Part shown: positions 49,237-63,016 of the stretch, one piece after another
How positions within the stretch are numbered: position 1 is the stretch's first letter
Layout of the letters: each line of letters starts with the position of its first letter
The notes under the pieces: generated by a model
Seen by the model: only the letters and a program-made list of their open reading frames with translations
The model's database searches: none
What the model was told of the DNA's origin: nothing
Program-made: the position numbers and the translations under genes
Assembly (NCBI GenBank): GCA_943349725.1
Contig: CALQZP010000001.1
Span: 5,401 to 69,400 of the forward strand
Direction of reading: 5' to 3'
DNA: 64,000 nt
DNA from: Candidatus Nomurabacteria bacterium
GTDB taxonomy: Bacteria; Patescibacteriota; Minisyncoccia; Phycocordibacterales; UBA10002

Positions 49237-50580
49237 TTAGAGGAGAGCCCGAATCTGATTAATTTCCTGAAGTAGGTTTGGGTCTTCGCGGATCTCGTTC
49301 TTTATTTTGTCGCACGAGTGGATGACTGTTGTGTGATCTCTTCCTCCAAGCCTCTGCCCAATAAGAGGGAACGAAATACTGCAGTCCTCACGGAGAATAT
49401 ACATGACAAGCTGTCTCGGCTTCACCACCTCTTTCCGACGAGTCTTCTCGTAGATGTGATTCTCGTCAATGTTGTAAAAGTCGGCGACAACCTTCGTAAT
49501 ATCCTTAATTGACAAGCTTTTCTTCGGCTTTCCGGTGTTCTTAAGAATAGCTTTTACCTCAAGTACCCCGAGGTCTCTCCCTTTCACCTGTGTCTGCATC
49601 ATAATGGAATTGAGAATTCCTTCAAGCTCTCTGATGTTCCCCTCAAGAGTTGCGGCGATGTAGTCGGCAACTTCACTTGAAAGCTCAAACCGCATAAGCC
49701 GAGCCTTGGTTTTGAGGATAGATACACGCGACTCCCTGTCCGGAGGAGGAATATCGACAATCATACCGGCCGCGAAACGGGATTTTAGACGTTCCTCAAG
49801 ATTCTGAATATAATTTGGGTGCTTGTCAGAGGAAAAGATAATTTGTTTGTTATGCGCGTAAAGGTCGTTGAATAAATGGAAAAGTTCTTCCTGACTCTTC
49901 TCTTTATTTGAAAAGAACTGGATGTCATCCATAATCAGCGCGTCATACTGACGATACTTCTCCTTAAATTGAGAGATGCGACTCTGTTGCATCGCGGTCA
50001 CAAAATCCTGGGAGAACTTTTCCGAGGTAACATAATAGATTTTTTGTCCGGGAAACGCAGTCTTGAGATGATTCCCAATAGCTTGAATAAGGTGGGTCTT
50101 GCCGTGCCCAGTCGAACCGTAGACAAAAAGAGGGTTGTAGGTAGCCCCCGGGCTTTTAATGATGGCCTGCGAGGCAGCGTGCGCGAGTTCGTTGAAAGGA
50201 CCCACGACAAACGAATCAAAGGTGTAGCGTGGGTTAAGGTTGGTCTCTTTGTCCACATAATGATCCTGGAGCGGGAGTTCGGGCGTGCGAGACGGAGCTG
50301 ATGTTTTCAAAAGTTCCCGTTTTCGGGGGTCGTCCTTGGTAACGGTATATTCAATGGAGCGGATGTGCTCGGAAAGAGTACGAAGCGAATGAAGAATCGA
50401 TTTGTGGTATTTGTTGAGCAACCAATCCTTCACAAAGGTATTTGGTACCGAAAGATGGACTACCCCCTCTTCTATGCGTGCTATCGCAGTATCTTTAAAC
50501 CACGTCGTAAAGTTCGCCTTAGAAACGGCGAGTTCAATCTCCGCAAGAGCACTTTCCCAGAGTTGTTTGGTGTCGGTCAT
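49237..50580 (-). CDS. dnaA: chromosomal replication initiator DnaA
   Basis: 447 aa; AAA+ motifs GSTGHGKTHL, box VII, C-terminal DNA-binding domain. Confidence 0.9.
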   Translation of the reverse strand: MTDTKQLWESALAEIELAVSKANFTTWFKDTAIARIEEGVVHLSVPNTFVKDWLLNKYHKSILHSLRTLSEHIRSIEYTVTKDDPRKRELLKTSAPSRTPELPLQDHYVDKETNLNPRYTFDSFVVGPFNELAHAASQAIIKSPGATYNPLFVYGSTGHGKTHLIQAIGNHLKTAFPGQKIYYVTSEKFSQDFVTAMQQSRISQFKEKYRQYDALIMDDIQFFSNKEKSQEELFHLFNDLYAHNKQIIFSSDKHPNYIQNLEERLKSRFAAGMIVDIPPPDRESRVSILKTKARLMRFELSSEVADYIAATLEGNIRELEGILNSIMMQTQVKGRDLGVLEVKAILKNTGKPKKSLSIKDITKVVADFYNIDENHIYEKTRRKEVVKPRQLVMYILREDCSISFPLIGQRLGGRDHTTVIHSCDKIKNEIREDPNLLQEINQIRALL

Positions 50581-50848
50581 AAGATAATGAAATATGGAAT
50601 ATGAACTATATAATAAGAAAGCTAATCGGATATCTTATGGTATATGGTTCATATTCCATTTCTTAGTGGTACTAGTATATACCGATAACCGAAATGCAAA
50701 ACTTGTGAAAAAACCTGTGATATGTTAATAATATGTGGACAAGTTGGGGACAAGACCATATGGACCACATAACATGGATCACGTAACATCAGGCAGTCTC
50801 AAGAAAAGTCTTGTATTCCGTGTTTCATAATTCATAATCCATTTCTTT

Positions 50849-51001
50849 ATGAGCTTCACCTACAACCCAAAAAGAAAGAAACGAGCACGAACACACGGTT
50901 TTCGCTCCCGCATGGCTACCCCCGGAGGTCGTTCGGCTCTTTCCAGACGACGCGCTAAAGGACGTAAGAAGCTTACGGTAAGTCGAAAGAAAGCCTCCTA
51001 G
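50849..51001 (+). CDS. rpmH: 50S ribosomal protein L34
   Basis: 50 aa [24 protein letters not shown]...; below the ORF-track size cutoff, found by manual translation. Confidence 0.85.
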
Positions 51002-51005
51002 GAGC

Positions 51006-51037
51006 AAAAAAGCCTGCCTGTTGGCAGGCTTTTGTTA
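51006..51037 (+). terminator. Rho-independent terminator after rpmH
   Basis: aaaaaagcctgcc tgtt ggcaggcttttgtt. Confidence 0.7.
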
Positions 51038-51064
51038 TAGGGCTTACACATTTCGCACTTTTCT

Positions 51065-51140
51065 GTCATTCCAGCGAAAGCTGGAATCCAGTGTTAGGCC
51101 ATTTTCTGAAGTCCTGGATTCCAGTTTTCACTGGAATGAC
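51065..51140. repeat. twin-hairpin palindromic element (gtcattccagcgaaagctggaatcc family), copy 2
   Basis: attccagc-GAAA-gctggaat hairpin plus ggattccag-ttttca-ctggaatgac hairpin; shares its 5' half with 2763-2817. Confidence 0.6.
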
Positions 51141-51182
51141 ACCGATTGAGCAGGTTCTATATAAGCTAAAAGCTCTCCTTCA

Positions 51183-51521
51183 ATGCTCCCCAAATCAAAA
51201 CGTCTCACCACCGAGGACTTCAAAACACTGAAGGGTGGGCGAACCACGCACACTCCCCACCTCATTCTCCGCCTCTCCCCTGCACCTGAAGGAGTGGGAA
51301 AATTTGCCGTTGTGGTGTCGTCTTCAAACTACAAACGAGCGGTTGACCGCAATCTACTTAGACGACGCCTTTACAGCCTCATTAAGAGGCTTCTCCCACT
51401 TCTCCCAAAAGGTATCCTCACCGTCACCTGTAAAAAGGGAGCACTCCTTGCGACCTTTTCGGAGTTAGAAAACGAGGTACACTCCTTGTGCGCAAAAAAG
51501 CCCACATCTACGGCAGTCTGA
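51183..51521 (+). CDS. rnpA: ribonuclease P protein component
   Basis: 112 aa basic protein, KSKRL...FAVVVSS RnpA pattern, follows rpmH. Confidence 0.8.
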   Translation: MLPKSKRLTTEDFKTLKGGRTTHTPHLILRLSPAPEGVGKFAVVVSSSNYKRAVDRNLLRRRLYSLIKRLLPLLPKGILTVTCKKGALLATFSELENEVHSLCAKKPTSTAV

Positions 51522-51573
51522 CTGCTGTAAATACTCCTTTGGTAATTTACCGATTTTGGGCTAGAATAGGGCC

Positions 51574-52308
51574 ATGTTCGCACTGCTAAAGGCGATTTTT
51601 TATATTCCCCTCTACAATGGGCTCATTTTCCTGATAGATGTCCTCCCCGGACATTCGGTCGGCATCGCGGTCATACTGTTTACCTGCCTCGTTAAACTGG
51701 TCCTCTCCCCTCTTTCCCATAAGGCGGCCAAGTTTCAGTTGGAAATGAAATTGCATGAGCCCGAGATAAATCGCCTTAAAGAACAATTTAAAGCCGACAA
51801 ACAGGCACAAGGAAAGGCAATTCTAGATTTTTACCGCGAGAAGAAGATCAATCCGTTTGCAGGTATTTTGCCCCTTTTTATACAAATTCCCATTTTCATC
51901 TCCCTTTACTATGTGTTTTATGCGGGAGGGCTTCCTTCGATAGACTCTTCCCTCCTCTATTCATTTGTAGCGGTACCTGTCCCCGATATGCATCTTTTTG
52001 GTTTCAACATTCTTGAAAAAAGCATGCTGCTCGCTGTGTTGGCGGGAGTCGCCCAGTTCCTGCAGGCGCACTATGCTATGCCCCCTGCACCGCCCAAGAC
52101 CGACACACCCTCACTTGGGAATGACCTCGCGCGCGGTATGCATATGCAGATGAAGTATGTACTCCCCGTATTTATGGTCTTTATCGCCTACGCGATAAAC
52201 GGAGCAGTTGCACTTTATTTTATAACGAGTAGTCTGTTTACCATCGCGCAGGAGCTTGTGGTGCGCAGGTCACTCAAAAAGGGCCATCCTACCCACCCTG
52301 ACAAGTAA
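51574..52308 (+). CDS. yidC: membrane protein insertase YidC (short form)
   Basis: 244 aa, five TM helices, conserved YidC core; rpmH-rnpA-yidC-jag synteny. Confidence 0.8.
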   Translation: MFALLKAIFYIPLYNGLIFLIDVLPGHSVGIAVILFTCLVKLVLSPLSHKAAKFQLEMKLHEPEINRLKEQFKADKQAQGKAILDFYREKKINPFAGILPLFIQIPIFISLYYVFYAGGLPSIDSSLLYSFVAVPVPDMHLFGFNILEKSMLLAVLAGVAQFLQAHYAMPPAPPKTDTPSLGNDLARGMHMQMKYVLPVFMVFIAYAINGAVALYFITSSLFTIAQELVVRRSLKKGHPTHPDK

Positions 52309-52402
52309 CAGATACCAATCAACGAATGAACACCAATCTACAAATACCTACAAATGAGAGATAGGAGGATTAGTAGGTATTCGTTATATTGGTACAGATT
52401 AG

Positions 52403-52912
52403 TTGATTGGTAAAAGTATGAACTCAACCGAAATCAAAAAAATCATAGAAGACTTGCTTCGCCACATGCAGATATCCGTGGAGAGTATTTCGGTATCCGA
52501 GTGTGATGGGCGAGAGTGTTTTTCGGTACAAACTCCCGACTCCAGGCTTCTCATCGGGGAAGGCGGAGTCAATCTGCTTGCCTTCAATCACCTCGTTAAG
52601 AAGATGGCCTCACCAAAAGGCTCCACAGGCGAGACCCCCACAGTCGAGGAACGAGGGAAAACCTTTTTCGTTGATGTAAACGGCTTCCAAGAAGCCGCGC
52701 TTCAGAATATCAAAAATGTAGCCAAGATAATGGGCGACCGCGCTCGGTCATTCAAGACCAGTGTAGAGCTTGATCCGATGTCTTCGTATGAGCGAATGGT
52801 TATTCACGCCTTTTTCCAAGAGGCGAAGGACCTCAAGACCGAGTCGGTAGGTGAGGGAGACAAACGAAGGGTGGTGATACGGTATGTTGAAACTGGAACA
52901 AGTGACTTGTAA
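52403..52912 (+). CDS. jag: Jag/KhpB RNA-binding protein (KH plus R3H)
   Basis: 169 aa; R3H-like C-terminus RMVIHAFFQEAKDLKTESVGEGDKRRVVI; synteny with yidC. Confidence 0.75.
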   Translation: MIGKSMNSTEIKKIIEDLLRHMQISVESISVSECDGRECFSVQTPDSRLLIGEGGVNLLAFNHLVKKMASPKGSTGETPTVEERGKTFFVDVNGFQEAALQNIKNVAKIMGDRARSFKTSVELDPMSSYERMVIHAFFQEAKDLKTESVGEGDKRRVVIRYVETGTSDL

Positions 52913-53070
52913 CAGGTAACTGGAACTAAGATTTCGCGTGACCGAGTTTCTTCTTGAATCCACCAAGTTGGTCTGAAATACAATACTGTTGCTATTAGTA
53001 GGTTTTTAACATAAACCTACTAATATTTGTTGACTTTAGCAGGTTTAGGTATTAAACTTACGGAGCCCTT

Positions 53071-53802
53071 ATGGTAACTAACGGTAAAATAAGAATAAGT
53101 GAAGCAGCAAAGATACTTGGCGTATCCGTCCCTACTCTCCGTAATTGGGAAAAGTCTGGGAAACTCCGTGCAGAAAGAAGCGTTGGCAAACAACGCTATT
53201 ATAATCTTACCGACCTACAAAAATTTGTTGTTGATGTAGAGGGTTTAGGATTGATATGGGCGACGAGTGCAATACCGCAAGAACTTCCCCGTGAGTACTA
53301 TTGTGAGTCGTCGGATCGTTTTACAACTCGAGTAACAAGGATGGGCGCCGAACTTCAAAGAGATGGTCGTTTCTCCGGAGCGTTGGATTCGCTCATTACA
53401 CTAGTTGCTAGCGAAATAGGCGACAACTCTTTTGCGCACAATTTGGGCAATTGGCAAGATGTTCTGGGTATGTTCTTCGCCTACGATCTTGAAAAGAAGA
53501 TCATAGTAATAGCTGATAGAGGACAAGGTGTTAAGACAACCCTTCTGCGAGTCAGACCGTCCCTTGCCAGCGATATGGAGGCATTGAAGGTTGCTTTTAC
53601 GGAGATAATTTCCGGGAGAAACCCGGAAAAGAGAGGAAACGGATTGAAGGTTGTGCTCAGGGTGCTGGAATCACGTGAAGTAGGACTTTTTTACCGGTCT
53701 GGAATTGGAGTCGTCACTGTTCCAGTTGAGAAGCCTGGCTATCTCACGATAGGCACGGCAGATCAAAACGTACGCGGGATGTATTGTGTTATTAAGTTTT
53801 AG
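53071..53802 (+). CDS. MerR-family HTH fused to a GHKL-type (RsbW/SpoIIAB-like) ATPase/kinase domain
   Basis: N-terminus ISEAAKILGVSVPTLRNWEKSGKL is a MerR HTH; the C-terminal half has GHKL N-, G1- and G2-like boxes (EIGDNSFAHN, IADRGQGV, GNGLKV). Confidence 0.5.
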   Translation: MVTNGKIRISEAAKILGVSVPTLRNWEKSGKLRAERSVGKQRYYNLTDLQKFVVDVEGLGLIWATSAIPQELPREYYCESSDRFTTRVTRMGAELQRDGRFSGALDSLITLVASEIGDNSFAHNLGNWQDVLGMFFAYDLEKKIIVIADRGQGVKTTLLRVRPSLASDMEALKVAFTEIISGRNPEKRGNGLKVVLRVLESREVGLFYRSGIGVVTVPVEKPGYLTIGTADQNVRGMYCVIKF

Positions 53803-53809
53803 ATTTATT

Positions 53810-54127
53810 ATGCAAACAATTTATCTTAAGAAGTTCGGTAACGTCCTCGTAGGACGACCCAACGGGCAAGAAGCTTTTAATGCTCTTAGACCTGAGTTAA
53901 ATCAAGATCAGTCTGTTCAGATTGATTTTAGTGACGTACTTACTGTCAATCCTTCGTGGCTTGATGAATTTCTTACCCGCCTTGCTGATTTCAACCAGGG
54001 AAAGGTTCAATTACTTCCCACCAGTAACGCTTCTGTGCGAATAGCGCTTCCAGTGCTAGTAATGGAGCGCAAAGATTTTGTAGCTGACATAGTAAACCGG
54101 GCTATAAAAGAAATGGGACTTAAATAA
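53810..54127 (+). CDS. DUF4325 (STAS-like) domain protein
   Basis: 105 aa; IYLKKFGNVLVGRPNGQEAFNAL...VQIDFSDVLTVNPSWLDEFL matches the DUF4325 STAS-like pattern. Confidence 0.5.
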   Translation: MQTIYLKKFGNVLVGRPNGQEAFNALRPELNQDQSVQIDFSDVLTVNPSWLDEFLTRLADFNQGKVQLLPTSNASVRIALPVLVMERKDFVADIVNRAIKEMGLK

Positions 54128-54206
54128 AGTTTGGCCTCGTCCTAGTCCCCAAAGCTCGCTCTGCTCGGAAGACCTCGGCGAGGTATTAGGCGAGCCAAAC
54201 TTTATT
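54123..54206. repeat. long hairpin, family copy 2 (aataaagtttggcctcgtcct...gccaaactttatt)
   Basis: Lies between convergent genes and likely acts as a bidirectional terminator; stem sequence shared with 8362-8447. Confidence 0.65.
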
Positions 54207-55401
54207 CAGTCATCTGCAGGCTCCAGAGGGTCCCGCTCACTTTGTCGGTAAAAACCAAGAATTTGTCGTCAGTGCTCACTTGCGGGTGCGTGAGGTCAAT
54301 CGGACTTCCCCGCTTCTCGCTAATATCTAAGATTCGCTCGGTAACTCCCGAAGGTGAAATACTCCACACCTCGTCGGTAAAGGGGATGACCCCTTGATAC
54401 CACACGTCAGGATAGCTTCCAGTGGGGATTTCCTTGGGGACGCCACAATAAAATATGGTCCCGCCTTTGTTCCACGCGCATTTTTCGGGGAAGGTGGTCA
54501 CGCCGACCTGTGTACGCGCGCCGGTTGTCATATTGAAGAGTGAGAGCGAGATGGAAGCTTCCCTGCTTGAGGAAAAGAGTACTTCAGGTTTGACCGGATT
54601 GGGGAGCGCGGTAAGGCCGGGGGTATTGCGGAGCACAAGTGAGGTGTTACCGGTGCCGGGGTCGAGCGAGAGAAGCATACCGTCGGCCAAGAACGAAGGC
54701 TTCGAAAGCAAAAAGATTTTGTTTTGAGATGGCCATAGGACGAGCCATTCATAAAGGGGCGAGTCCCAAAGCTGTGTTCTCCCGTTTCCCGCAAGGTCGC
54801 TTCTAATTCCTATGGCCCCTCCATTTTTCTCGGTGAGGTAAAAAAAGCTCGTTCCGTCGGGAGAGACAGCTCCATCGAGTATTCCGCGCGGGAGAAAGGT
54901 TCCGGCAAGCTCTCCTTCTGCCCCGGATGCTTCGAGGTTGACGCGTGCCGAGAAGGATTCAATCACCTCACTATCGTCGCGAAGATATCGTGAGATGAGG
55001 GTGGTACCCGATTTACTCCACAGCGCTTCATAGACCTTCGGAATGGTCGTATTCGTGAGGCGCTTCTCCCCTTCCGCATTTGCGCCTATTTCAAAGATAT
55101 TTCCGGTGGCCCTGTCCTGATAGCGGACAATCGCCTCGCCACTCCGTACTCCCAGCACCGCTCCTGCGGTCGGTTCTTTGGAGAGTTGTCGCAAGATAGG
55201 CTCAAACGCCCCCGGTTTTTCTTCGGGGAGCACCACGGGAGGCTCTTGTTTGGGCGTAACTTCGTCGCCTACCCCCGGAAAGGTGCCTCCGCCATCTGGC
55301 GAAACCGGCTCCTTGGTAAACAGGAAATACAGAAAGATACCGAGGGCTACCAAGAGGAGCACCACAACGACCCCTATGATGATTTTAGTTCTTCGGGACA
55401 T
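54202..55401 (-). CDS. N-terminally membrane-anchored protein with beta-propeller-like (PD40/TolB-like) ectodomain
   Basis: 399 aa, one TM helix, Pro-rich linker, repetitive beta-rich segments. Confidence 0.35.
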   Translation of the reverse strand: MSRRTKIIIGVVVVLLLVALGIFLYFLFTKEPVSPDGGGTFPGVGDEVTPKQEPPVVLPEEKPGAFEPILRQLSKEPTAGAVLGVRSGEAIVRYQDRATGNIFEIGANAEGEKRLTNTTIPKVYEALWSKSGTTLISRYLRDDSEVIESFSARVNLEASGAEGELAGTFLPRGILDGAVSPDGTSFFYLTEKNGGAIGIRSDLAGNGRTQLWDSPLYEWLVLWPSQNKIFLLSKPSFLADGMLLSLDPGTGNTSLVLRNTPGLTALPNPVKPEVLFSSSREASISLSLFNMTTGARTQVGVTTFPEKCAWNKGGTIFYCGVPKEIPTGSYPDVWYQGVIPFTDEVWSISPSGVTERILDISEKRGSPIDLTHPQVSTDDKFLVFTDKVSGTLWSLQMTE

Positions 55402-55412
55402 GTGTTAGATGA

Positions 55413-56417
55413 CTACGGTTGGCCGATTTTAGTACAATCCGTCGCTCTAGTAGGACCAACTGCAGTGTTGTACTTGGCGCAGAGCGACTTTAACGCGGTG
55501 ATGAATTCGGCCTGTACCTCTTGAGCTTTGGCGGGAAAACCAAGACGGTTAAGTTCCTGGACCTCCACATCTCGTTTCTTTCCCATTTCCTCAATTCCTT
55601 CCAGGAAAATCCTATTTGCGCCGTCTATACTTGGATTCGCATCTATCTGGTACTCATAATTTTTGGCCTGAAGATTTATTCGCGCCTTAGCGGCTACTAC
55701 ATCCGCATCTACTGCTTTACGAAGCAAGCTCGCACGGAGGGTTTCAAGCTCAGTCTTCTTCTTTGCAAAGGCGAGAATCTCCGCTTGAGTTGCTGTCGGG
55801 TTTCTCATATTTTCCTCTAATTTCCAAATGGCATCCGCGGCTTCCATCGCTTTCGCTTTCGCAATTTTTGCATCAATGACATTGGGTTTTGCATTTTCCG
55901 TTTTCAAGTCGGACAGAAGCTTATCCAGCACTTTGCTGTAGTGCTCTTCCGGATTGTCCACCACTTGCAACGTTGCATCTACTTTTTGCACGGTTACCCG
56001 ATCGAAGTTGAGCGATAGGTCAAGGTCGCTTCCGAGCGACGGACTAATCTGGTTCATAAAGATAAAGGAGCCGTAGACGATGACAACTCCCCCAATCGCC
56101 CGCAGGATAATGCCCTTCGCCTCGCTGTGCCCAAGAATGGAGTCGGTGAAGATAAGGGTAAAGCCTCCGCGGACAATCGCGAAAACGGCAAAAAAGCCGG
56201 CAAGTGCGACACCGACATTGTAGATAGTGCGGAGGTAGCGAGGGAAGCAGGTGGGGGCGACACATTCGGTATCCTTGGTAAACTCTGAGCCGGGGGCGTT
56301 AATCGGGGCAAGCGGGATATAGTTCACCTGGGTCGCATAAGCAATAGGAACCTCCACCTTCCCTATCGCGGAGAGGACTGCTATGACACAAAGGCTGTAA
56401 ATAAATATCGTTTTCAT
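55413..56417 (-). CDS. secreted/membrane protein with signal peptide, two TM helices and long coiled-coil tail (pilin/VirB2-like N-terminus, speculative)
   Basis: 334 aa; signal peptide ending AYA, hydrophobic pair VGVALAGFFAVFAIV / GGVVIVYGSFIFM. Confidence 0.35.
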   Translation of the reverse strand: MKTIFIYSLCVIAVLSAIGKVEVPIAYATQVNYIPLAPINAPGSEFTKDTECVAPTCFPRYLRTIYNVGVALAGFFAVFAIVRGGFTLIFTDSILGHSEAKGIILRAIGGVVIVYGSFIFMNQISPSLGSDLDLSLNFDRVTVQKVDATLQVVDNPEEHYSKVLDKLLSDLKTENAKPNVIDAKIAKAKAMEAADAIWKLEENMRNPTATQAEILAFAKKKTELETLRASLLRKAVDADVVAAKARINLQAKNYEYQIDANPSIDGANRIFLEGIEEMGKKRDVEVQELNRLGFPAKAQEVQAEFITALKSLCAKYNTAVGPTRATDCTKIGQP

Positions 56418-56426
56418 ACAACTTTT

Positions 56427-57470
56427 TTATCGCGTAAGTGTCGGGTCAAACTGAAACCCCTTTAACGGAAACTCAATCATAAGATTCGCGTCGGTTGCTT
56501 GAAACGCTCGCTTGTCATCTGAACTACGTGCTTCAAGGAAGAGGCTTGTTCGCCCGGGGGCATCGGAGGTACGTCGCAAAATGATGAACGGGTCCTTTGA
56601 AGATTCAAGGGGGGTGTAGTTCATTTGCCACTCGTAGACCATATCCTTACTTCCTCGCGTGCCCGACGTTTCAAAATAGTAGGGAACGGCGTCTATGCGA
56701 GCCTCATCTTCCTCAAGCGAAAAGGTACTGCCGAGAGCCTTTTGAAGCAACAGGCCATAGCGAGGGTGGTTTTCGTAGAACAACAAACGAGGAGACACGG
56801 GGTCTACTGTGATACTCGCCTCCGCGGACATCGTTCGGTCCGGACTTTCCACCAAGACGGAAATGGTTTTTGGTCGCATAGGAACGGCTCCGCGGAACGG
56901 GAAAAGATTTTTGCCTTTTCCTGATGAGCCACCAATAACATCATCTCCCTCTTTCCAGGTATAAATGAGTGACTCCGGAGCCATCGTTGACCTTCCCTGC
57001 GCAAAGGTAGGAACCGCTGTTACCATTACCGTGCCTTGAAAGGGCATAAGCGCCTTTCCGCGATAAAACGGAGGGGTGTAGGACTGCGCCTGCCACAGGA
57101 GATTTACTTCCGCCGGACGAATAACCGTATCTTTTGAATAGGTATTGCCGTTTTCGGCTATTGCCGCGACACGCACGATGGTGGTTTCCCCATTCCGACC
57201 TGCGCGGACGACGAGCTTTTTGTAACCCACAGCGGTTTTGACGGGGCGGTCGTTTACAAACCAGTGCACCTCCGAGCGGTTAAGGTCAAAGTTGTAGCTT
57301 TCAATGGAAACGGTCACCTCTTCTCCCGGGCGTGGGTAGGCTGGGGAAATCACCATCGTGAGTTCTGTCCCTGTGTTTCCCACTTGGGCAAAAGAAGGAT
57401 GTGCCCCGACAACAAGGTCAAAAAGAAAAAGAGTAGCTAAAAAGAAAGATGTGAGAATCTTACGATGCAT
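56427..57470 (-). CDS. secreted hypothetical protein
   Basis: 347 aa, N-terminal signal peptide, beta-rich. Confidence 0.4.
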   Translation of the reverse strand: MHRKILTSFFLATLFLFDLVVGAHPSFAQVGNTGTELTMVISPAYPRPGEEVTVSIESYNFDLNRSEVHWFVNDRPVKTAVGYKKLVVRAGRNGETTIVRVAAIAENGNTYSKDTVIRPAEVNLLWQAQSYTPPFYRGKALMPFQGTVMVTAVPTFAQGRSTMAPESLIYTWKEGDDVIGGSSGKGKNLFPFRGAVPMRPKTISVLVESPDRTMSAEASITVDPVSPRLLFYENHPRYGLLLQKALGSTFSLEEDEARIDAVPYYFETSGTRGSKDMVYEWQMNYTPLESSKDPFIILRRTSDAPGRTSLFLEARSSDDKRAFQATDANLMIEFPLKGFQFDPTLTR

Positions 57471-57518
57471 AGCGTATAGTATACCTTGTATTTACACTTT
57501 TTTCTGTGCACATCCTCT

Positions 57519-59096
57519 TTAGGGGAGCTTCTCTCCCCTCAGTACTGCTTTAATGACGTGGGCCAGCTCATTTTTGAGCTTCTTCTCGGTTTTCTTCACC
57601 GCTTCTTTAAGGCCTTCTTTAAGACCAGAGATGTTTCCGGTTGTTTTCTGTCCGCCTTGCGTTGAAACATCTGCTTCTATAGGTTTTGTCTGTTGCGCGG
57701 ATGAGATTGACGCGGTGGGGGTAGTATCATTTCCACTCTTCTGGTTCCCTGGGGAGCTTGTGGCGGTTTGAGCCGCTCCATTTGTTGTTGCTCCCGCAGG
57801 AGTCTGGGTTGGCGCACTTCTTTTTTCTTCAGGCTTACTATTTTGAGTTTGCGGAATAGGTTGTGGTGCTGTTTGTGCGGGAGGCGGTGTGTTTTGTGTT
57901 TGCGCTGGTGCGGGTGAAGCAGTGGCCGGTGCTCTCGTAGGAGTTGTTTGTGCTGGAGGCGTGGTTGCTTGTGGTTTTGTTTCGGTAGGTTGCGGTAAGG
58001 AGGTTTCAGCACCCTTTGCTTGAGCTCCCTGCGGACGTGCAGGCGGTTTCTGGCTTTGTGGAAGCGGTGGTGGGCTTGGTCTCCTCGGTGCGCTGTTTTC
58101 TGGTGACGGTGTTGATACAGGAGCCGTTCCAGGTTCTTGTCTAGCGGGTTCCGGGCTCGACTTATTCGCTGTAGGTGCCTGCCCTAATGGAGTTGGCGGG
58201 GGTTGTACTGTGGAAACTTTCGGACTCTCCCGCTTTGTTTCTGGTGCTTCTGCCTGCGAAGGTGACCGTGGAGTCTGCACTGTGTCGGAGCTGTGCGGTG
58301 CCATTTCCGCGGTTGAGTTTTGCGGTGGAACAATCGGAGATTGTGGTTGTCTAAACACCGGCTGTGCGCCAATGTCCTGATTTGGTGTTGCAGAAGGAGC
58401 TTGCCCCGTGGAAGAGTCTTGGTGGCGTGCAGGATGGTTAGCAGTTACGGGGCTTGAAGCGCCTCCCGTTTCGGCGACACGGTGAGTTTGCTGTGTACTT
58501 TCTTGTCCCCCATGCGATACGCTTCCCGCACTCCCCACAGCACCTCCGCTTGTTGCCTCGGTTGCCTGTGGAGCGCGAAGGTTAAGAGTGTTGTGTGTTT
58601 CTCCTCCACCACCCTCCTTCTTTTCCGCTTTATCCGCTTTCTCACTCTCCGACCTTTGAGAATGAGCGAGACTTAGACCTCCCTGCGTCCTCGCTGCGAG
58701 AGCCTTTGATGCTAGGGTACCAAGTGGCCCCGCTTTCTCTAGCAGTTCCTCGGCACGTGTCGTCGCGAAGAGCACAAGTACCGCTACGGTCCATGTGGGT
58801 AAGATTCCGCCAATGGGTACGACTTTGACAAGAAGCGCCAGCGGGAATGTCATAATACGCTTCACGCCAACGAAATTTACGCCGTGCAATTTGAACCACA
58901 CATAGAAGGTGAGCCATGCCCAGATAGAAACCAGCACACCAACCATGAGGTTTATTGTGGAAGTAAGCAAATTCAAAAGCGGGATAAAGTCCAGCAATTT
59001 CGGGGCAGCAACTATAACATCAAACAGCAGTGCAACCGCTCCCATAAGCACAATTGTGGGAATGCTGATTCTGTGTTTTGCGGGGGTTGAGGGCAC
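57519..59096 (-). CDS. polytopic membrane protein with long Pro/Thr/Ala/Gln-rich disordered C-terminal region (VirB6/TrbL-like candidate)
   Basis: 525 aa; 4-5 TM helices in the first 120 residues, then low-complexity PQ/PT/PA repeats. Confidence 0.4.
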   Translation of the reverse strand: MPSTPAKHRISIPTIVLMGAVALLFDVIVAAPKLLDFIPLLNLLTSTINLMVGVLVSIWAWLTFYVWFKLHGVNFVGVKRIMTFPLALLVKVVPIGGILPTWTVAVLVLFATTRAEELLEKAGPLGTLASKALAARTQGGLSLAHSQRSESEKADKAEKKEGGGGETHNTLNLRAPQATEATSGGAVGSAGSVSHGGQESTQQTHRVAETGGASSPVTANHPARHQDSSTGQAPSATPNQDIGAQPVFRQPQSPIVPPQNSTAEMAPHSSDTVQTPRSPSQAEAPETKRESPKVSTVQPPPTPLGQAPTANKSSPEPARQEPGTAPVSTPSPENSAPRRPSPPPLPQSQKPPARPQGAQAKGAETSLPQPTETKPQATTPPAQTTPTRAPATASPAPAQTQNTPPPAQTAPQPIPQTQNSKPEEKRSAPTQTPAGATTNGAAQTATSSPGNQKSGNDTTPTASISSAQQTKPIEADVSTQGGQKTTGNISGLKEGLKEAVKKTEKKLKNELAHVIKAVLRGEKLP

Positions 59097-59212: not shown

Positions 59213-62200
59213 CTATTCCTTCCCTTCCGCCGCCTTCAGCTCATCCTTTGCAGCCTTGATGGAGAGGAGTTGCGACGGGTCGGAGGTAATGATTTGGTCT
59301 TCGGTATAGGAAGCAATGATTTTGATGGCGACATGCTTGAGGCCCACGAAGAAGAGCCCCTCCCCTACGTCAGATTCAAGCAGGAGATATTTCTCTTCAT
59401 CCGTTAGGCTGAAAATAGTTTGGAGCTTGTCCACCACCGTTGGCGATTGCTTGAGGAGCATCTGCATTGAGGAGTTGGTGAGAATGGGGAGTCCATAGGG
59501 CGACTTCAAAAAGTCGTCCACGTCTTGAGTAATAGTAGAAAGACCGAGGTAGTATTTGCGTCCACGTTTCGCAAGGCCAAGAAGGAACGAAGCGGTGTCC
59601 TCCGATTTCATCATCCACCACGCCTCATCAATCACCATCAAACGTTTCTTGAGCTCCTTTCTGATGGAGTTCCAGATGAAGTGCATTACGATATACATTG
59701 CGGCAGGCTTCAGCTCATCTTCCATATCGCGGAGTGAAAAGACGATAAAGTTTGAATTGATGTCCACGTTTGACGGTTGGTTGATAAAGCCCGCCCACGT
59801 GCCGTGCGTATATTTGGAAAGACGCTGTACAAGCGACTCGGCTCCTTGGATTCCCGCAAGCACCAATTCAAAGTCGGAAAGAAGCGGTGGCTCTATTTTT
59901 GAGAAATCAGAGTCGGGAGTAATGTCCTTCAGCGCGTAAGTTTCGGCAATGGCGCGGTCAATCATCGCGTCTTCCTCCGCGGAAAGCCCTCCGAGGAGAA
60001 TGCGAAATAGTCCCACCAGGTTGATGATGTTTGAGCGTAGCACGTCAGCCGGAGATTCGTCTTCTCTTGGGGGCGCAAGCTCAAAAGGGTTGATATGGTG
60101 CTCCGAGTTGAGTGAGATGTTGAAGTATTTTCCGCCTGTTGCCTCCGCGAGGTATTCATACTCGCGTTCGGGGTCAATGACAATCACGTCCGTGCCGAAC
60201 ATCAGTGAGCGCAAAATCTCAAGCTTGGTCATATACGAGTTATGCACGAACATACCGCCATATCCCGCTAAGAATACTTCGTTATCCACCGTTAAATCAT
60301 AGACATATCGTTCCGTTTTGTTTGTGAAAGGTTCAATCGCCACAATCTCGTCCCACGCGAGGTCTGCAGTCGCCAACTTCTCCAGTCGCACGAGTAGCTC
60401 CCGCACACGAGGAATGTTGTTGCATAAGGAATGGTAACGGGCAGAAATGAAGGAGGACGCCTGCGTCAGCATTTCATAAGAGGTGTTGGCTTCAGGGTGG
60501 ATATGAAGGGCTGTTCGAAGTGAAGGGTTATGATACTTCATTGGCTCGCCTAAGAATTCGAATCCCTCGCTTATCGCTTCTTTGAGCTCGGGTAGTCTGG
60601 GTACGTCAATTCCCATACAGGAAAGAGCGGTAACGGCATTTGCCATTCCGGGCATCTTTCCTTTTTTCATTGTCGCAAAGCTTGAGCCGAGTTCTTTCCA
60701 TAGCAGGGCGTTTACGGCTTTGCTCTGCTTTGCCACTTTTATAATATCCGCAATGGTAGGCAATCCAGTGAGAACCCTGAAAAGAGCCCGCTTTGATTCA
60801 ATGTCCCGTATCACCATTCGTATGTCGGCAATGACTAGTTTTAACTGCCTCGGTGATGGGTTAAAGACACCACGTTTGAGGGGACTCCAATTCTTTCGGC
60901 CACGCATCGCTTTGCCGAGAAGCGCGTCAATTTCTTGAAAGAGTGGAGGAAGTCCGGGAATGATATCTACATTCGTATTTTCGGCTCGCTTCAATGTAAG
61001 CAACATCCCTTTTTTTCGTTCCGATATGAAATTGATATGTTCTCGAAATGACGACAGATTCTTCTGCCCCGATATGGTGAGCAACGAATAGTCCTCCTTA
61101 GATTTTCCGGGTATGAGCTTTTTCCTTACCGCCAAACGACTGATGACGCCAAAGTTATACAGCAAGTAGCAGAGGTCGGAGGTAAGCATTCTTGATTTTG
61201 AGACTGCGGTTATGGTCGGTCCGTCCACTCCGCCGTCACCCTCAAAATAGGCAGAGAGGAAAGCCGTCTGCGCGTTTCGTGGGCTTTCAAAAATGATGGA
61301 AGGAACTCGTTTGGTTGCCGATTTTTCTTGTAATCCGATTATGGCGAGAAACTTTACGAAAATAATATCGCTTATAACCACACTTTTCGGTGTAAGGAAA
61401 TGTTGCACTTCCAAAGTGGTAAGAGCCGTACAAACGTCCTGTATCACTTCAGGGTCAATGTTGCTTATAATCGCAACCTTCTTTCCTATAGTCCCTTCGG
61501 ACACCAAATACCCAAGTATTTTTGCAAGTGCGGGAGTGACGGTATAGAACGCGGGTAGCTTTCCTGTCCCGCTCGCGGAGATAATGAAGCACTGTGCTAG
61601 GCGAGCGTCGGTTATCTCAAGAGAAAGGCAGGCAAGTAGTTTGCGAAAATAGGAGATTGGTACGCGCCTTCCGGCGGCATACTTGTAAAGATAGCGGTCA
61701 AATCGTGAGTCAATAACCTCTGTCCTAAGCAAGCGTCTGTATTCCACCATAAGCGGTGCGACTCCGGTAACATATACACGCGAGTCCGCCATATGTTTTA
61801 GTAGATTGAGTGTGAGTGGAGAGGTTGTGCCGTTCTTTACTTCTCGTGGCAAGGGTACATATTCACCTAGACCGATATCCGCGCTCTTGGTGGCAACCAC
61901 TTCTCCCTTCCGAAGCACCAGCATATTATGGTCGCCTGTAGTTTCCACCACACGACCACTGCGAGTTTTGAAACGGTACAGTTCTTGCGGAGCGTCTTTT
62001 CGTGCCGCAACCGTTACTCTGCTCCACGTGCCCTTCATCTCTTTATCAAAGCTCCATACTTCAAGTCCTGGGTCAATAACCCCTTCTAGTTCGTGGTCAA
62101 TTTGCATCACCCCACGTTCCAAAATTGCTTCCTCAACAATATCCCCGATCGGCCGAAGTAACACTCGGTCATTTTTTCGCATGAGCACAGGTTCGTGACC

Positions 62201-63016
62201 AAGAATGCTCTTGCCCGAACCTGATTTAGCTAGGGTGATTGAGTTGTAGTTCTCCAAACTGAAGCGGTCAAAGAGAACAAGGGAAGCGTTGTGACGGTTG
62301 ATGCCGTAGAGAATGCCCTTGTTGGAAGTAAGGTCAAACGAGAGAAACGGAAACACGCTTGAAAGTGGAGAAGAGTTGAGCTTCGTGTGCACCATAAGCT
62401 CGTCGTTGCCAAGCGGAGAGGTGGAACGAAATCCTTGCTCCTGCTGAAAGAGAGCCGGTTTCATAATGACGAGTTTGCTTTCAAGAAGCGAGCGTATTTC
62501 ACTCTCGGTCTTATCAAGCTCGTTCTCATCTCCCGCATAGATGGTGAGATAAATACCGACATCAAAAAGCTTTTCCTGCGCCTGCAGAAGGTCATCACGA
62601 AGTTTCTCAAGGTCTTGGTAGGCTGTCTCAAGCATCGGGTCGCGTACGAGCCCCTTCTTCTCACGGTCCGCCATTTGACTCTGGACCTCCGCTACTTTTT
62701 TCTGGAAGGTGCGCAGTACCTTGGCGGTATCCACCGGGTGAATAAAGATACTGATGTCAAAAACCTTATCAAGATTGATAATGGGCGCGAACCAGCCTTC
62801 GGTGAGGTAACGGGGGTAGGAAATGACAAAGAATGTTCGCGTCATCTTCCCGCTCACGTTGAGCGACTTCGCCTCTATCTTGAGAGCCGCGGGGGCGATG
62901 ACATCTTGGAGTTCAAGCGTGCCAGATTGGTAAATCTGCTCGGGGAGAAATTCCGCGATATCCTTGTCCGCTTTTTTCTTGTTGAAGAAATTAAAAAACC
63001 CCATAATGTTTACCAA
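59213..63016 (-). CDS. VirB4/TraC-family conjugation/T4SS ATPase interrupted by an intein
   Basis: 1267 aa; Walker A AKSGSGK|S is split, and rejoining gives GSGKSYMTKLE; Walker B MVIDEAWWMM lies in the C-extein. Confidence 0.75.
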   Translation of the reverse strand: MVNIMGFFNFFNKKKADKDIAEFLPEQIYQSGTLELQDVIAPAALKIEAKSLNVSGKMTRTFFVISYPRYLTEGWFAPIINLDKVFDISIFIHPVDTAKVLRTFQKKVAEVQSQMADREKKGLVRDPMLETAYQDLEKLRDDLLQAQEKLFDVGIYLTIYAGDENELDKTESEIRSLLESKLVIMKPALFQQEQGFRSTSPLGNDELMVHTKLNSSPLSSVFPFLSFDLTSNKGILYGINRHNASLVLFDRFSLENYNSITLAKSGSGKSILGHEPVLMRKNDRVLLRPIGDIVEEAILERGVMQIDHELEGVIDPGLEVWSFDKEMKGTWSRVTVAARKDAPQELYRFKTRSGRVVETTGDHNMLVLRKGEVVATKSADIGLGEYVPLPREVKNGTTSPLTLNLLKHMADSRVYVTGVAPLMVEYRRLLRTEVIDSRFDRYLYKYAAGRRVPISYFRKLLACLSLEITDARLAQCFIISASGTGKLPAFYTVTPALAKILGYLVSEGTIGKKVAIISNIDPEVIQDVCTALTTLEVQHFLTPKSVVISDIIFVKFLAIIGLQEKSATKRVPSIIFESPRNAQTAFLSAYFEGDGGVDGPTITAVSKSRMLTSDLCYLLYNFGVISRLAVRKKLIPGKSKEDYSLLTISGQKNLSSFREHINFISERKKGMLLTLKRAENTNVDIIPGLPPLFQEIDALLGKAMRGRKNWSPLKRGVFNPSPRQLKLVIADIRMVIRDIESKRALFRVLTGLPTIADIIKVAKQSKAVNALLWKELGSSFATMKKGKMPGMANAVTALSCMGIDVPRLPELKEAISEGFEFLGEPMKYHNPSLRTALHIHPEANTSYEMLTQASSFISARYHSLCNNIPRVRELLVRLEKLATADLAWDEIVAIEPFTNKTERYVYDLTVDNEVFLAGYGGMFVHNSYMTKLEILRSLMFGTDVIVIDPEREYEYLAEATGGKYFNISLNSEHHINPFELAPPREDESPADVLRSNIINLVGLFRILLGGLSAEEDAMIDRAIAETYALKDITPDSDFSKIEPPLLSDFELVLAGIQGAESLVQRLSKYTHGTWAGFINQPSNVDINSNFIVFSLRDMEDELKPAAMYIVMHFIWNSIRKELKKRLMVIDEAWWMMKSEDTASFLLGLAKRGRKYYLGLSTITQDVDDFLKSPYGLPILTNSSMQMLLKQSPTVVDKLQTIFSLTDEEKYLLLESDVGEGLFFVGLKHVAIKIIASYTEDQIITSDPSQLLSIKAAKDELKAAEGKE
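60239..62209 (-). mobile_element. intein (about 657 aa) with double-LAGLIDADG homing endonuclease inside the VirB4 P-loop
   Basis: Ser1 directly after the GSGK; block B TTGDHNMLVL; LAGLIDADG motifs ILGYLVSEGT and LSAYFEGDGGV; C-terminal ...FVHN followed by Ser+1. Confidence 0.7.

Follow-up and report, generated by a model that had tools for sequence, protein, structure and literature searches.

A MerR-type helix-turn-helix joined to a GHKL kinase-like domain, and its DUF4325 partner: a candidate autoregulated two-gene switch in Patescibacteria

The closest described relatives of the locus reported here are the CapK/CapS and VapK/VapS systems. CapK is a kinase with the domain order helix-turn-helix (HTH), STAS, GHKL, and CapS is a repressor composed of a STAS domain and a winged HTH; single-stranded DNA (ssDNA) activates CapK, which phosphorylates Ser54 on STAS helix alpha-2 of CapS, breaking the CapS dimer and derepressing the adjacent immune operon, and deletion of CapK's own HTH had no effect (PMC13373217). 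In the VapKSC system, the kinase VapK has the order STAS-GHKL, and the VapC toxin is inhibited by VapS, a small STAS antitoxin in which Ser48 is conserved (PMC13373217; Chambers et al., EMBO J 2026). DUF4325 genes also appear in a catalogue from 2017, coupled to a clade of VapC (PMC5499597). In CapKS and VapKSC, phosphorylation of the conserved Ser on STAS helix alpha-2 governs partner binding, and the targets of the two systems are not sigma factors (PMC13373217). The pair of genes described here was found in a stretch of 64,000 nucleotides from a Candidatus Nomurabacteria bacterium (contig CALQZP010000001.1, positions 5,401 to 69,400), the whole of which we refer to as the window. Gene A encodes an HTH-GHKL protein and gene B, directly downstream, a small protein of the STAS fold; both genes, and the gap between them, had been placed correctly in an initial annotation of this DNA. 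Patescibacteria (the candidate phyla radiation, CPR), whose genomes are very small, cannot be grown in culture on their own, and to our knowledge almost nothing is known of how they regulate their genes.

We read A-B as a self-contained, autoregulated two-gene switch, with a probability of roughly 0.6; the contact of A with B, the phosphorylation of B and the direction of B's effect are steps that we infer. A begins with a MerR-type HTH, as first annotated: residues 8-52 match PF00376 at 46.4 bits (cut-off 28.2) and MerR_1 at 40.7 bits (cut-off 21.6), and the HTH_17 and TIGR01764 profiles also match the N-terminus. The nearest structures to this domain are Xis and BldC, both of which lack a coiled coil, and the long coiled-coil dimerisation helix and C-terminal effector-binding domain of MerR regulators are absent from A, in which the structural model has a short linker followed by the GHKL domain. 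BldC and excisionase (Xis) are single-domain proteins, whereas the HTH of A is tethered to a GHKL domain and the sites found upstream of one of its two clades (clade 1, below) are palindromic. The linker includes W63, invariant in 82/82 sequences, and by the model and a comparison of architectures it is too short to hold the STAS domain that occupies this position in CapK and VapK.

The C-terminal domain of A was assigned from its predicted structure and its motifs. Residues 60-243 had no family match in Pfam, NCBIfam or PADLOC searches; A did not match PF13581 (HATPase_c_2), against which its HTH-less relatives score 13-20 bits, under the cut-off of 27.4; and searches of PDB sequences with the family profiles returned HTH matches only, or none, leaving the GHKL part unrecognised. 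The predicted structure is a Bergerat alpha/beta fold whose nearest neighbors are SpoIIAB, RsbW, UsfX and SiaB. Three invariant motifs run through the family, E115-x3-N119-x3-H123, D149-R-G-x-G153 and S181-G-R-x-P-E-x-R-G-x-G-L-K193; within them E115, N119, D149, G151 and G153 are the same in 82/82 sequences, and G189 and G191 are present in 81/82. An hhalign comparison with SpoIIAB was not significant (E 0.065), yet it placed the motifs in register with E46/N50/H54 and DEGVG of SpoIIAB. The sole low-confidence loop of the model (residues 180-187) is at the site of the ATP lid. On fold and motifs, the C-terminal domain, as modeled, is a member of the GHKL ATP-binding superfamily, of the RsbW/SpoIIAB kind that had initially been proposed. 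The domain (window 53248-53799) also matches phrog_3364, a family of unknown function with a profile of 304 positions, at E 7e-6 over profile positions 141-264; this profile is about the length of VapK, suggesting that VapK-like proteins may occur in phage genomes.

B is predicted to have a STAS fold, with SpoIIAA and RsbV from kinase complexes as its nearest structures, and it falls just under the cut-off for DUF4325 (PF14213; 22.2 bits, E 1.2e-4, cut-off 23 bits), a family that 27/29 members of the B family match at E<0.01. The original description of B as a DUF4325 STAS-like protein is supported by these results. The start listed for B among the open reading frames (ORFs), a GTG at 53786, was rejected because the N-terminal sequence MQTI is kept across the whole B family.

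Relatives of A are numerous, with 1,096 at E<=1e-3 among clusters at 90% identity, and 185 species-representative genomes encode one. All that carry a name are Patescibacteria (Uhr-, Magasanik-, Komeili-, Kaiser-, Zambryski-, Adler-, Nomurabacteria and others), and in the data searched the A-B pair is confined to this group. Counts of pairing and neighborhood rest on 80 loci kept from those 185 genomes. B lies directly downstream of A in 77/77 assessable loci; the other 3/80 end 54, 1 and 67 nt past the A match. When all flanking ORFs were clustered, only A (79 loci) and B (78 loci) recurred, the next real family being present in at most 6 loci, and no phosphatase (PP2C type), sigma factor or toxin was found as a conserved third gene in the ~80 loci. 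None of the genes that neighbor the pair in the window does so elsewhere, including at loci in which A is 78-80% identical. Because only A and B recur and their neighbors are not shared, A-B is a free-standing two-gene module. Searches of IMG/VR viral contigs, phage records and plasmids found no A-B relatives.

An exhaustive search with the kinase domain only yielded 265 clusters (50% identity), which fall into two size classes. Members of the shorter class, of ~190-200 aa, have the same motifs and no HTH, and are directly followed by a DUF4325 gene (33.6 and 40.4 bits). Because these HTH-less kinases also precede a DUF4325 gene, the pairing of kinase and DUF4325 protein is older than the HTH fusion. 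One relative, P0246, has in place of the MerR HTH another N-terminal region, which matches an ArsR-type HTH weakly (E 0.016). Another, P0286, combines the same kinase domain with a cytidylyltransferase-like domain (PF01467, 2.6e-12), which might be a fusion produced by gene calling.

Kinship to characterized systems was examined with two hidden Markov models (HMMs), one built from the A kinase domain and the other from 82 B-type proteins; the targets included the four CapK, CapS, VapK and VapS sequences from the supplement of PMC13373217, with 200 shuffles per target. The kinase HMM scored 19.8 bits on VapK (E 1.4e-5), 10.6 on CapK and 4.0 on SpoIIAB, with a best shuffle of 5.0 (600 shuffles); the B family HMM scored 20.4 bits on VapS (E 1.8e-5) and below 0 on SpoIIAA, with a best shuffle of 9.8. 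VapS itself is a clear member of DUF4325 (62.7 bits), and an hhalign comparison of B with SpoIIAA gave no significant, informative result. From the scores on VapK, CapK and VapS, and the DUF4325 membership of VapS, A and B belong by sequence to the CapK/VapK-CapS/VapS clade, and their likeness to SpoIIAB and RsbW is one of fold and motifs only. The initial annotation had seen in the locus a pair resembling partner-switching modules, with the kinase fused to a DNA-binding domain. That idea gains from the obligate co-occurrence of the genes and from the conserved operators on their own promoter described below; its kinship lies with VapK/VapS and CapK/CapS rather than RsbW/SpoIIAB, and both phosphorylation and an effect of B on DNA binding are proposed steps of the model presented below.

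A-B is a stripped-down relative of CapK/CapS and VapK/VapS with a new wiring, in which the DNA-binding domain is solely on the kinase. As in VapK/VapS, a small STAS gene of the DUF4325 family comes directly after the gene for a GHKL kinase, the kinases share an EI..NSF.H N-box, and a conserved Ser stands at the start of STAS helix alpha-2. VapK, however, carries a STAS domain at its N-terminus and lacks an HTH, whereas A lacks a STAS domain and carries a MerR-type HTH; the C-terminal helix of VapS inhibits the adjoining VapC PIN toxin, whereas A-B has neither a toxin gene nor such an extension; and VapKSC occurs in diverse bacteria, often near defense genes, whereas A-B sits among housekeeping genes in Patescibacteria. 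The resemblance to CapK/CapS includes a kinase with an N-terminal HTH followed by a STAS substrate, repression of the pair's own promoter through phased palindromic sites, which for A-B is a prediction, and, by eye, GxGxxTTL and RGxGLK motifs common to CapK and the GHKL domain of A. Here the differences are that CapS is a repressor by virtue of its C-terminal winged HTH, whereas B has no DNA-binding domain and A has the only one; that the internal STAS domain of CapK, absent from A, forms an ssDNA-sensing groove; that CapKS runs a downstream immune operon, with none conserved beside A-B; and that the HTH of A is of the MerR/excisionase type and that of CapK of another.

With SpoIIAB/SpoIIAA and RsbW/RsbV the pair shares adjacent kinase and STAS genes and ExxxNxxxH, DxGxG and GxG motifs in register; it differs from them in that A has an HTH and that no PP2C gene is linked. 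These anti-sigma factor kinases and their antagonists are also the best structural matches for A and B, so that A might be thought to sequester a sigma factor as RsbW or SpoIIAB do, in a classical anti-sigma/anti-anti-sigma pair with an accessory HTH. We consider this very improbable: the score of the kinase HMM on SpoIIAB is under the best shuffle and the two pairs have no detectable sequence relation, none of the ~80 loci has a linked sigma factor gene, which counts indirectly against a sigma factor target, conserved operators and co-variation of the HTH (below) point to DNA as the partner, and sigma factors are not the targets of the related CapK and VapK (PMC13373217).

The promoter region of A holds conserved sites that the initial annotation did not mention. 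A sigma-70-like promoter, the only promoter-like site across 52850-54300, is accompanied by a distal palindrome, O2, and a proximal one, O1 (Table 1). O2 has 0 mismatches to the consensus palindrome and O1 has 2, and the remaining matches in the 64-kb window all have 3, which is chance level; the centers of O1 and O2 are 41 bp apart. Among relatives, we separated clade 1 (A at least ~53% identical) from clade 2 (43-53% identical). Clade-1 loci repeat the layout in unrelated genomic contexts, TTGACT-TTTATAGGTTT-N5-7-AAACTTATAAA plus an upstream palindrome, with TTGACT and the motif in most of them, and clade-2 loci have three direct repeats of ~TGCATAGATTT, the last of which overlaps the -35. 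In the 140 nt that precede A, the core heptamers reach a density of 20.2 per kb, compared with 0.78 per kb elsewhere in the loci, a 26-fold difference, and two or more copies are present upstream of A in 71/79 loci versus 2.8% of GC-matched control windows. An unbiased count of 7-mers upstream of A placed ACCTATA, AAACCTA and AACCTAT on top, 88-106-fold enriched. Palindromes with at most one mismatch number 48 in A promoters and one elsewhere in ~690 kb, that one being at -223 of an A gene.

The geometry of these sites is also constant. Palindrome centers are 41 bp apart in 26/34 cases and 40 bp in 6/34, the proximal site begins 10 nt past the start of the -35 in 23/25 loci, and the clade-2 repeats are spaced at 20-21 bp in 43/50 intervals. 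HTH positions 8, 21, 25, 37 and 41 switch together with operator type between the clades (R/T, Q/D-N, N/R, S/K and Q/H, respectively), and the scaffold residues T22, L23, R24, W26, G39, R42 and Y44 are kept in both. Because of the operator enrichment, the fixed geometry and the HTH co-variation, we think it highly probable that A binds these predicted operators and autoregulates the A-B operon. One site covers the spacer and -10 of a promoter whose 17-nt spacer is optimal, and for this reason repression by occlusion is the likely mode, judged from the arrangement of the sites. Classical MerR-type activation by DNA distortion was considered and rejected, because the spacer is 17 nt rather than an over-long 19-20 bp, although the operator does lie in the spacer.

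In the Magasanikbacteria orthologue (L001:5800-6020), the public gene call for A starts at a GTG inside the predicted promoter, and the conserved ATG is 18 nt downstream. This ATG is only ~8 nt past the -10, which suggests leaderless mRNA in many loci. The sequence just upstream in L001 (...GGTTCGAATCTCACCCCCACCGCCA) resembles the 3' end of a tRNA gene.

When metagenomes were scanned for the exact palindrome, 69 stretches were returned, 13 of them just upstream of an A homologue; the rest were mostly longer unrelated hairpins, with a few ambiguous cases. Contig L096:1100-2756 contains a complete array of operator and promoter-like sequences (TTATAGGTTT-N7-AAACCTATAA, then TTGATAGATTT...AACCTACTAATC) that is followed not by an A homologue but by a 486-aa ORF with the P-loop motif GPRRVGKT; this array may represent a second target, or a promoter that has been displaced. 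The exact palindrome was also found in three phage-like contigs, in L092:1082-2092 beside a putative structural protein, a small membrane protein and a lysin-like ORF, in L136:2515-3099 upstream of a transglycosylase-like ORF, and in L142; these could be chance occurrences, or sites in phage DNA that the host regulator recognizes.

In being a compact bicistron that is autoregulated, with palindromic operators across the promoter, the pair is built like type II toxin-antitoxin systems, and this raises a different interpretation of it, as a VapKSC-like toxin-antitoxin or defense sensor module whose effector has been lost or is unlinked. B would then hold an unlinked partner and release it when phosphorylated by A after a stress signal such as ssDNA, and the HTH would serve only for autoregulation, outside the control of B. 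VapK and VapS, the nearest characterized relatives, act in this way; the genomic position of A-B is not conserved even among close relatives, its distribution looks patchy (the 1,096 clusters and 185 species above), and there are links to phage in the phrog_3364 match and the palindromes of a few phage-like metagenome contigs. A defense or toxin-antitoxin role nevertheless seems unlikely to us, given that no third gene, whether for a toxin, a PIN domain or anything else, is conserved beside the pair, that PADLOC matches are limited to the HTH, that the searches of viral contigs, phages and plasmids found no relatives, and that the flanks are ordinary housekeeping genes with no integrases. At the level of the proteins, the STAS domain responsible for the ssDNA-binding groove of CapK and VapK is missing from A, and B, at 105 aa, lacks the C-terminal inhibitory extension of VapS (116 aa).

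For a switch operated by phosphorylation, the candidate acceptor in B is S49. The motif P48-S49-(W/F)-x-D52-E53-F54 is invariant in 82/82 B-type proteins, including partners of HTH-less kinases, and in the model it begins helix 48-62, after strand 36-39, where STAS phospho-sites sit. The HMM alignment places D52-S53-S54-F55 of CapS over N47-P48-S49-W50 of B, so that the CapS acceptor S54 corresponds to S49. Position 47 is Thr or Ser in 77/82 sequences and Asn in the window protein. In SpoIIAA the acceptor is the first Ser of DSSGLG; PDB entry 1tid_B has FMDASGLG at the acceptor position, and we take it to be a Ser-to-Ala mutant of SpoIIAA. S49 is the best candidate for the phospho-acceptor of B, with a register that the alignments leave uncertain by one residue.

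Several observations speak against a phosphorylation switch, or against an output beyond its own promoter. VapS aligns A47-S48-P49-F50 over N47-P48-S49-W50 of B, so that S48 of VapS falls on P48 and not on S49 (S48-P49 in VapS versus P48-S49 in B), and an ungapped comparison likewise places the phospho-Ser of SpoIIAA (S58) on P48. The B family HMM scores 9.5 bits on CapS, no better than the best shuffle of 9.8, and no PP2C-type phosphatase is linked to A-B in the ~80 loci. O2 scores as a terminator-like hairpin and could serve as the terminator of the upstream gene; termination is probably not its main role, because its sequence is kept behind different upstream genes. No operator was found before any other gene in the 64-kb window or in ~690 kb of flanks, DNA that amounts to a small part of any one genome, leaving a self-only loop without evident output.

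The Pro at the position aligned with the phospho-Ser of SpoIIAA and VapS, together with the lack of a linked phosphatase, would fit a regulator that senses nucleotides without phosphorylating anything: the GHKL domain would bind or hydrolyze ATP, B would be a STAS co-regulator by binding alone, and S49 would be structural, for example as a helix N-cap, a role for which P-S-W-x-D-E is suited as an N-terminal capping box in the model. The invariance of S49 and its alignment with the proven CapS site argue the other way, as do the full invariant catalytic set, including the N-box Glu, and the fact that the nearest folds are Ser-kinases rather than ATPases; we rate this alternative as quite improbable, even more so than a VapKSC-like module.

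In the autoregulated switch that we favor, dimers of A would occupy O1 and O2, on the same face of the DNA and four helical turns apart, blocking RNA polymerase and keeping the A-B operon repressed. The GHKL domain of A would be an ATP-binding Ser-kinase of the anti-sigma type, with B, the STAS protein, as the substrate that it binds. In its unphosphorylated form, B probably docks on the face of the GHKL domain by the HTH linker, altering the dimeric DNA binding of A, and A would phosphorylate B, most likely at S49, and then let it go. Promoter occupancy would be set by the state of the kinase, whether its ATP/ADP status or an activating ligand. Our confidence falls along these steps, and the strengths we give to four of them are judgements, not computed values: binding of A to its operators is the surest, binding of B to A is likely as well, phosphorylation of B by A at S49 has even odds, and control of A's DNA binding by B, as opposed to a separate, unlinked partner, is a tentative proposal at somewhat under even odds. 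The most economical form of the model, a minimal partner-switch in which the kinase is itself the transcription factor and B and ATP set DNA occupancy, with no sigma factor, toxin or separate repressor, is a little more doubtful again.

A-B thus represents a patescibacterial regulator with a predicted operator, a promoter, a partner protein and a candidate phospho-site, and it is small enough for in vitro work, requiring two small proteins and 70 bp of DNA. It extends the CapK/VapK kinase-STAS family to a new phylum, in a new wiring that has the DNA-binding domain on the kinase and not on the substrate. The clade of kinases has gained DNA-binding domains more than once: that of A is of the MerR type, CapK has another kind of HTH, and P0246 has an ArsR-like domain with a weak score. 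DUF4325 is tied to a concrete role, that of serving a dedicated GHKL kinase as its substrate or partner. Should B indeed control the DNA binding of its own kinase, this would be the simplest kinase-STAS transcriptional switch known; a function would also suggest itself for the HTH of CapK, which is so far unexplained, and the conserved linker of A (W63, F84) may be a new signal-sensing site.

Table 1. Positions in the window of the A-B genes, their domains and motifs, and the predicted promoter and operators.
Feature	Position	Strand	Details
Gene A, HTH-GHKL protein	53071..53802	+	243 aa, stop codon included
MerR/excisionase-type winged HTH of A, residues ~6-55	53086..53235	+	
Conserved linker of A, residues ~56-76	53236..53298	+	from secondary structure of model; invariant W63
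GHKL (Bergerat-fold) kinase-like domain of A, residues ~77-243	53299..53799	+	
N-box, E115-x3-N119-x3-H123	53413-53439	+	A GHKL domain
G1 box, D149-R-G-Q-G153	53515-53529	+	A GHKL domain
Lid and G2, S181-G-R-x-P-E-x-R-G-N-G-L-K193	53611-53649	+	A GHKL domain
Gene B, DUF4325 STAS-fold protein	53810..54127	+	105 aa, stop codon included; start is ATG at 53810
P-S49-W-x-D-E-F, B residues 48-54, N-terminus of STAS helix alpha-2	53951..53971	+	candidate acceptor S49 at 53954-53956
Predicted distal operator O2, perfect palindrome TATTAGTAGGTTT-N7-AAACCTACTAATA	52993..53025		core TAGGTTT-N7-AAACCTA at 52999-53019, directly upstream of -35
Sigma-70-like promoter of A-B operon (predicted)	53030..53058	+	TTGACT (53030-53035), 17-nt spacer, TAAACT (53053-53058)
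Predicted proximal operator O1, CAGGTTT-N7-AAACTTA	53040..53060		in promoter spacer, overlaps -10 hexamer; imperfect palindrome

In the window the pair follows a set of origin-proximal genes (49237-52912), in which dnaA on the minus strand diverges from rpmH, rnpA, yidC and a gene for a Jag-like R3H protein on the plus strand; a 158-nt gap separates the last of these from gene A. The 268-nt gap between dnaA and rpmH (50581-50848) may contain DnaA boxes or oriC. Between B and a convergent gene encoding 399 aa, the gap at 54128-54201 has a long imperfect inverted repeat (AAGTTTGGCCTCG ... CGAGCCAAACTT) around a small CCTCG-G-CGAGG hairpin, which may be a bidirectional terminator; a simple terminator scan raised no flag there. 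The pair was also initially described as lying immediately upstream of a cluster resembling a type IV secretion system (T4SS). A VirB4/TraG-like ATPase is indeed encoded downstream, and the position is incidental, the neighbors in the window being absent at all other loci; a functional link of A-B to the cluster was rejected for the same reason. Four minus-strand ORFs at 54202-59096, between B and this ATPase, had no match in a Pfam search. One of them (57519-59096), also without a Pfam match, encodes a protein of 525 aa in which hydrophobic segments at the N-terminus precede ~350 low-complexity residues rich in P, T, Q, A and S. The ATPase, a 1,267-aa ORF on the minus strand (59213-63016), is a P-loop protein of the VirB4/TraG type (PF19044, 1e-20; AAA_10), and is interrupted by an intein with a LAGLIDADG homing endonuclease (Intein_splicing, 1.6e-16; LAGLIDADG_3, 2.6e-14).

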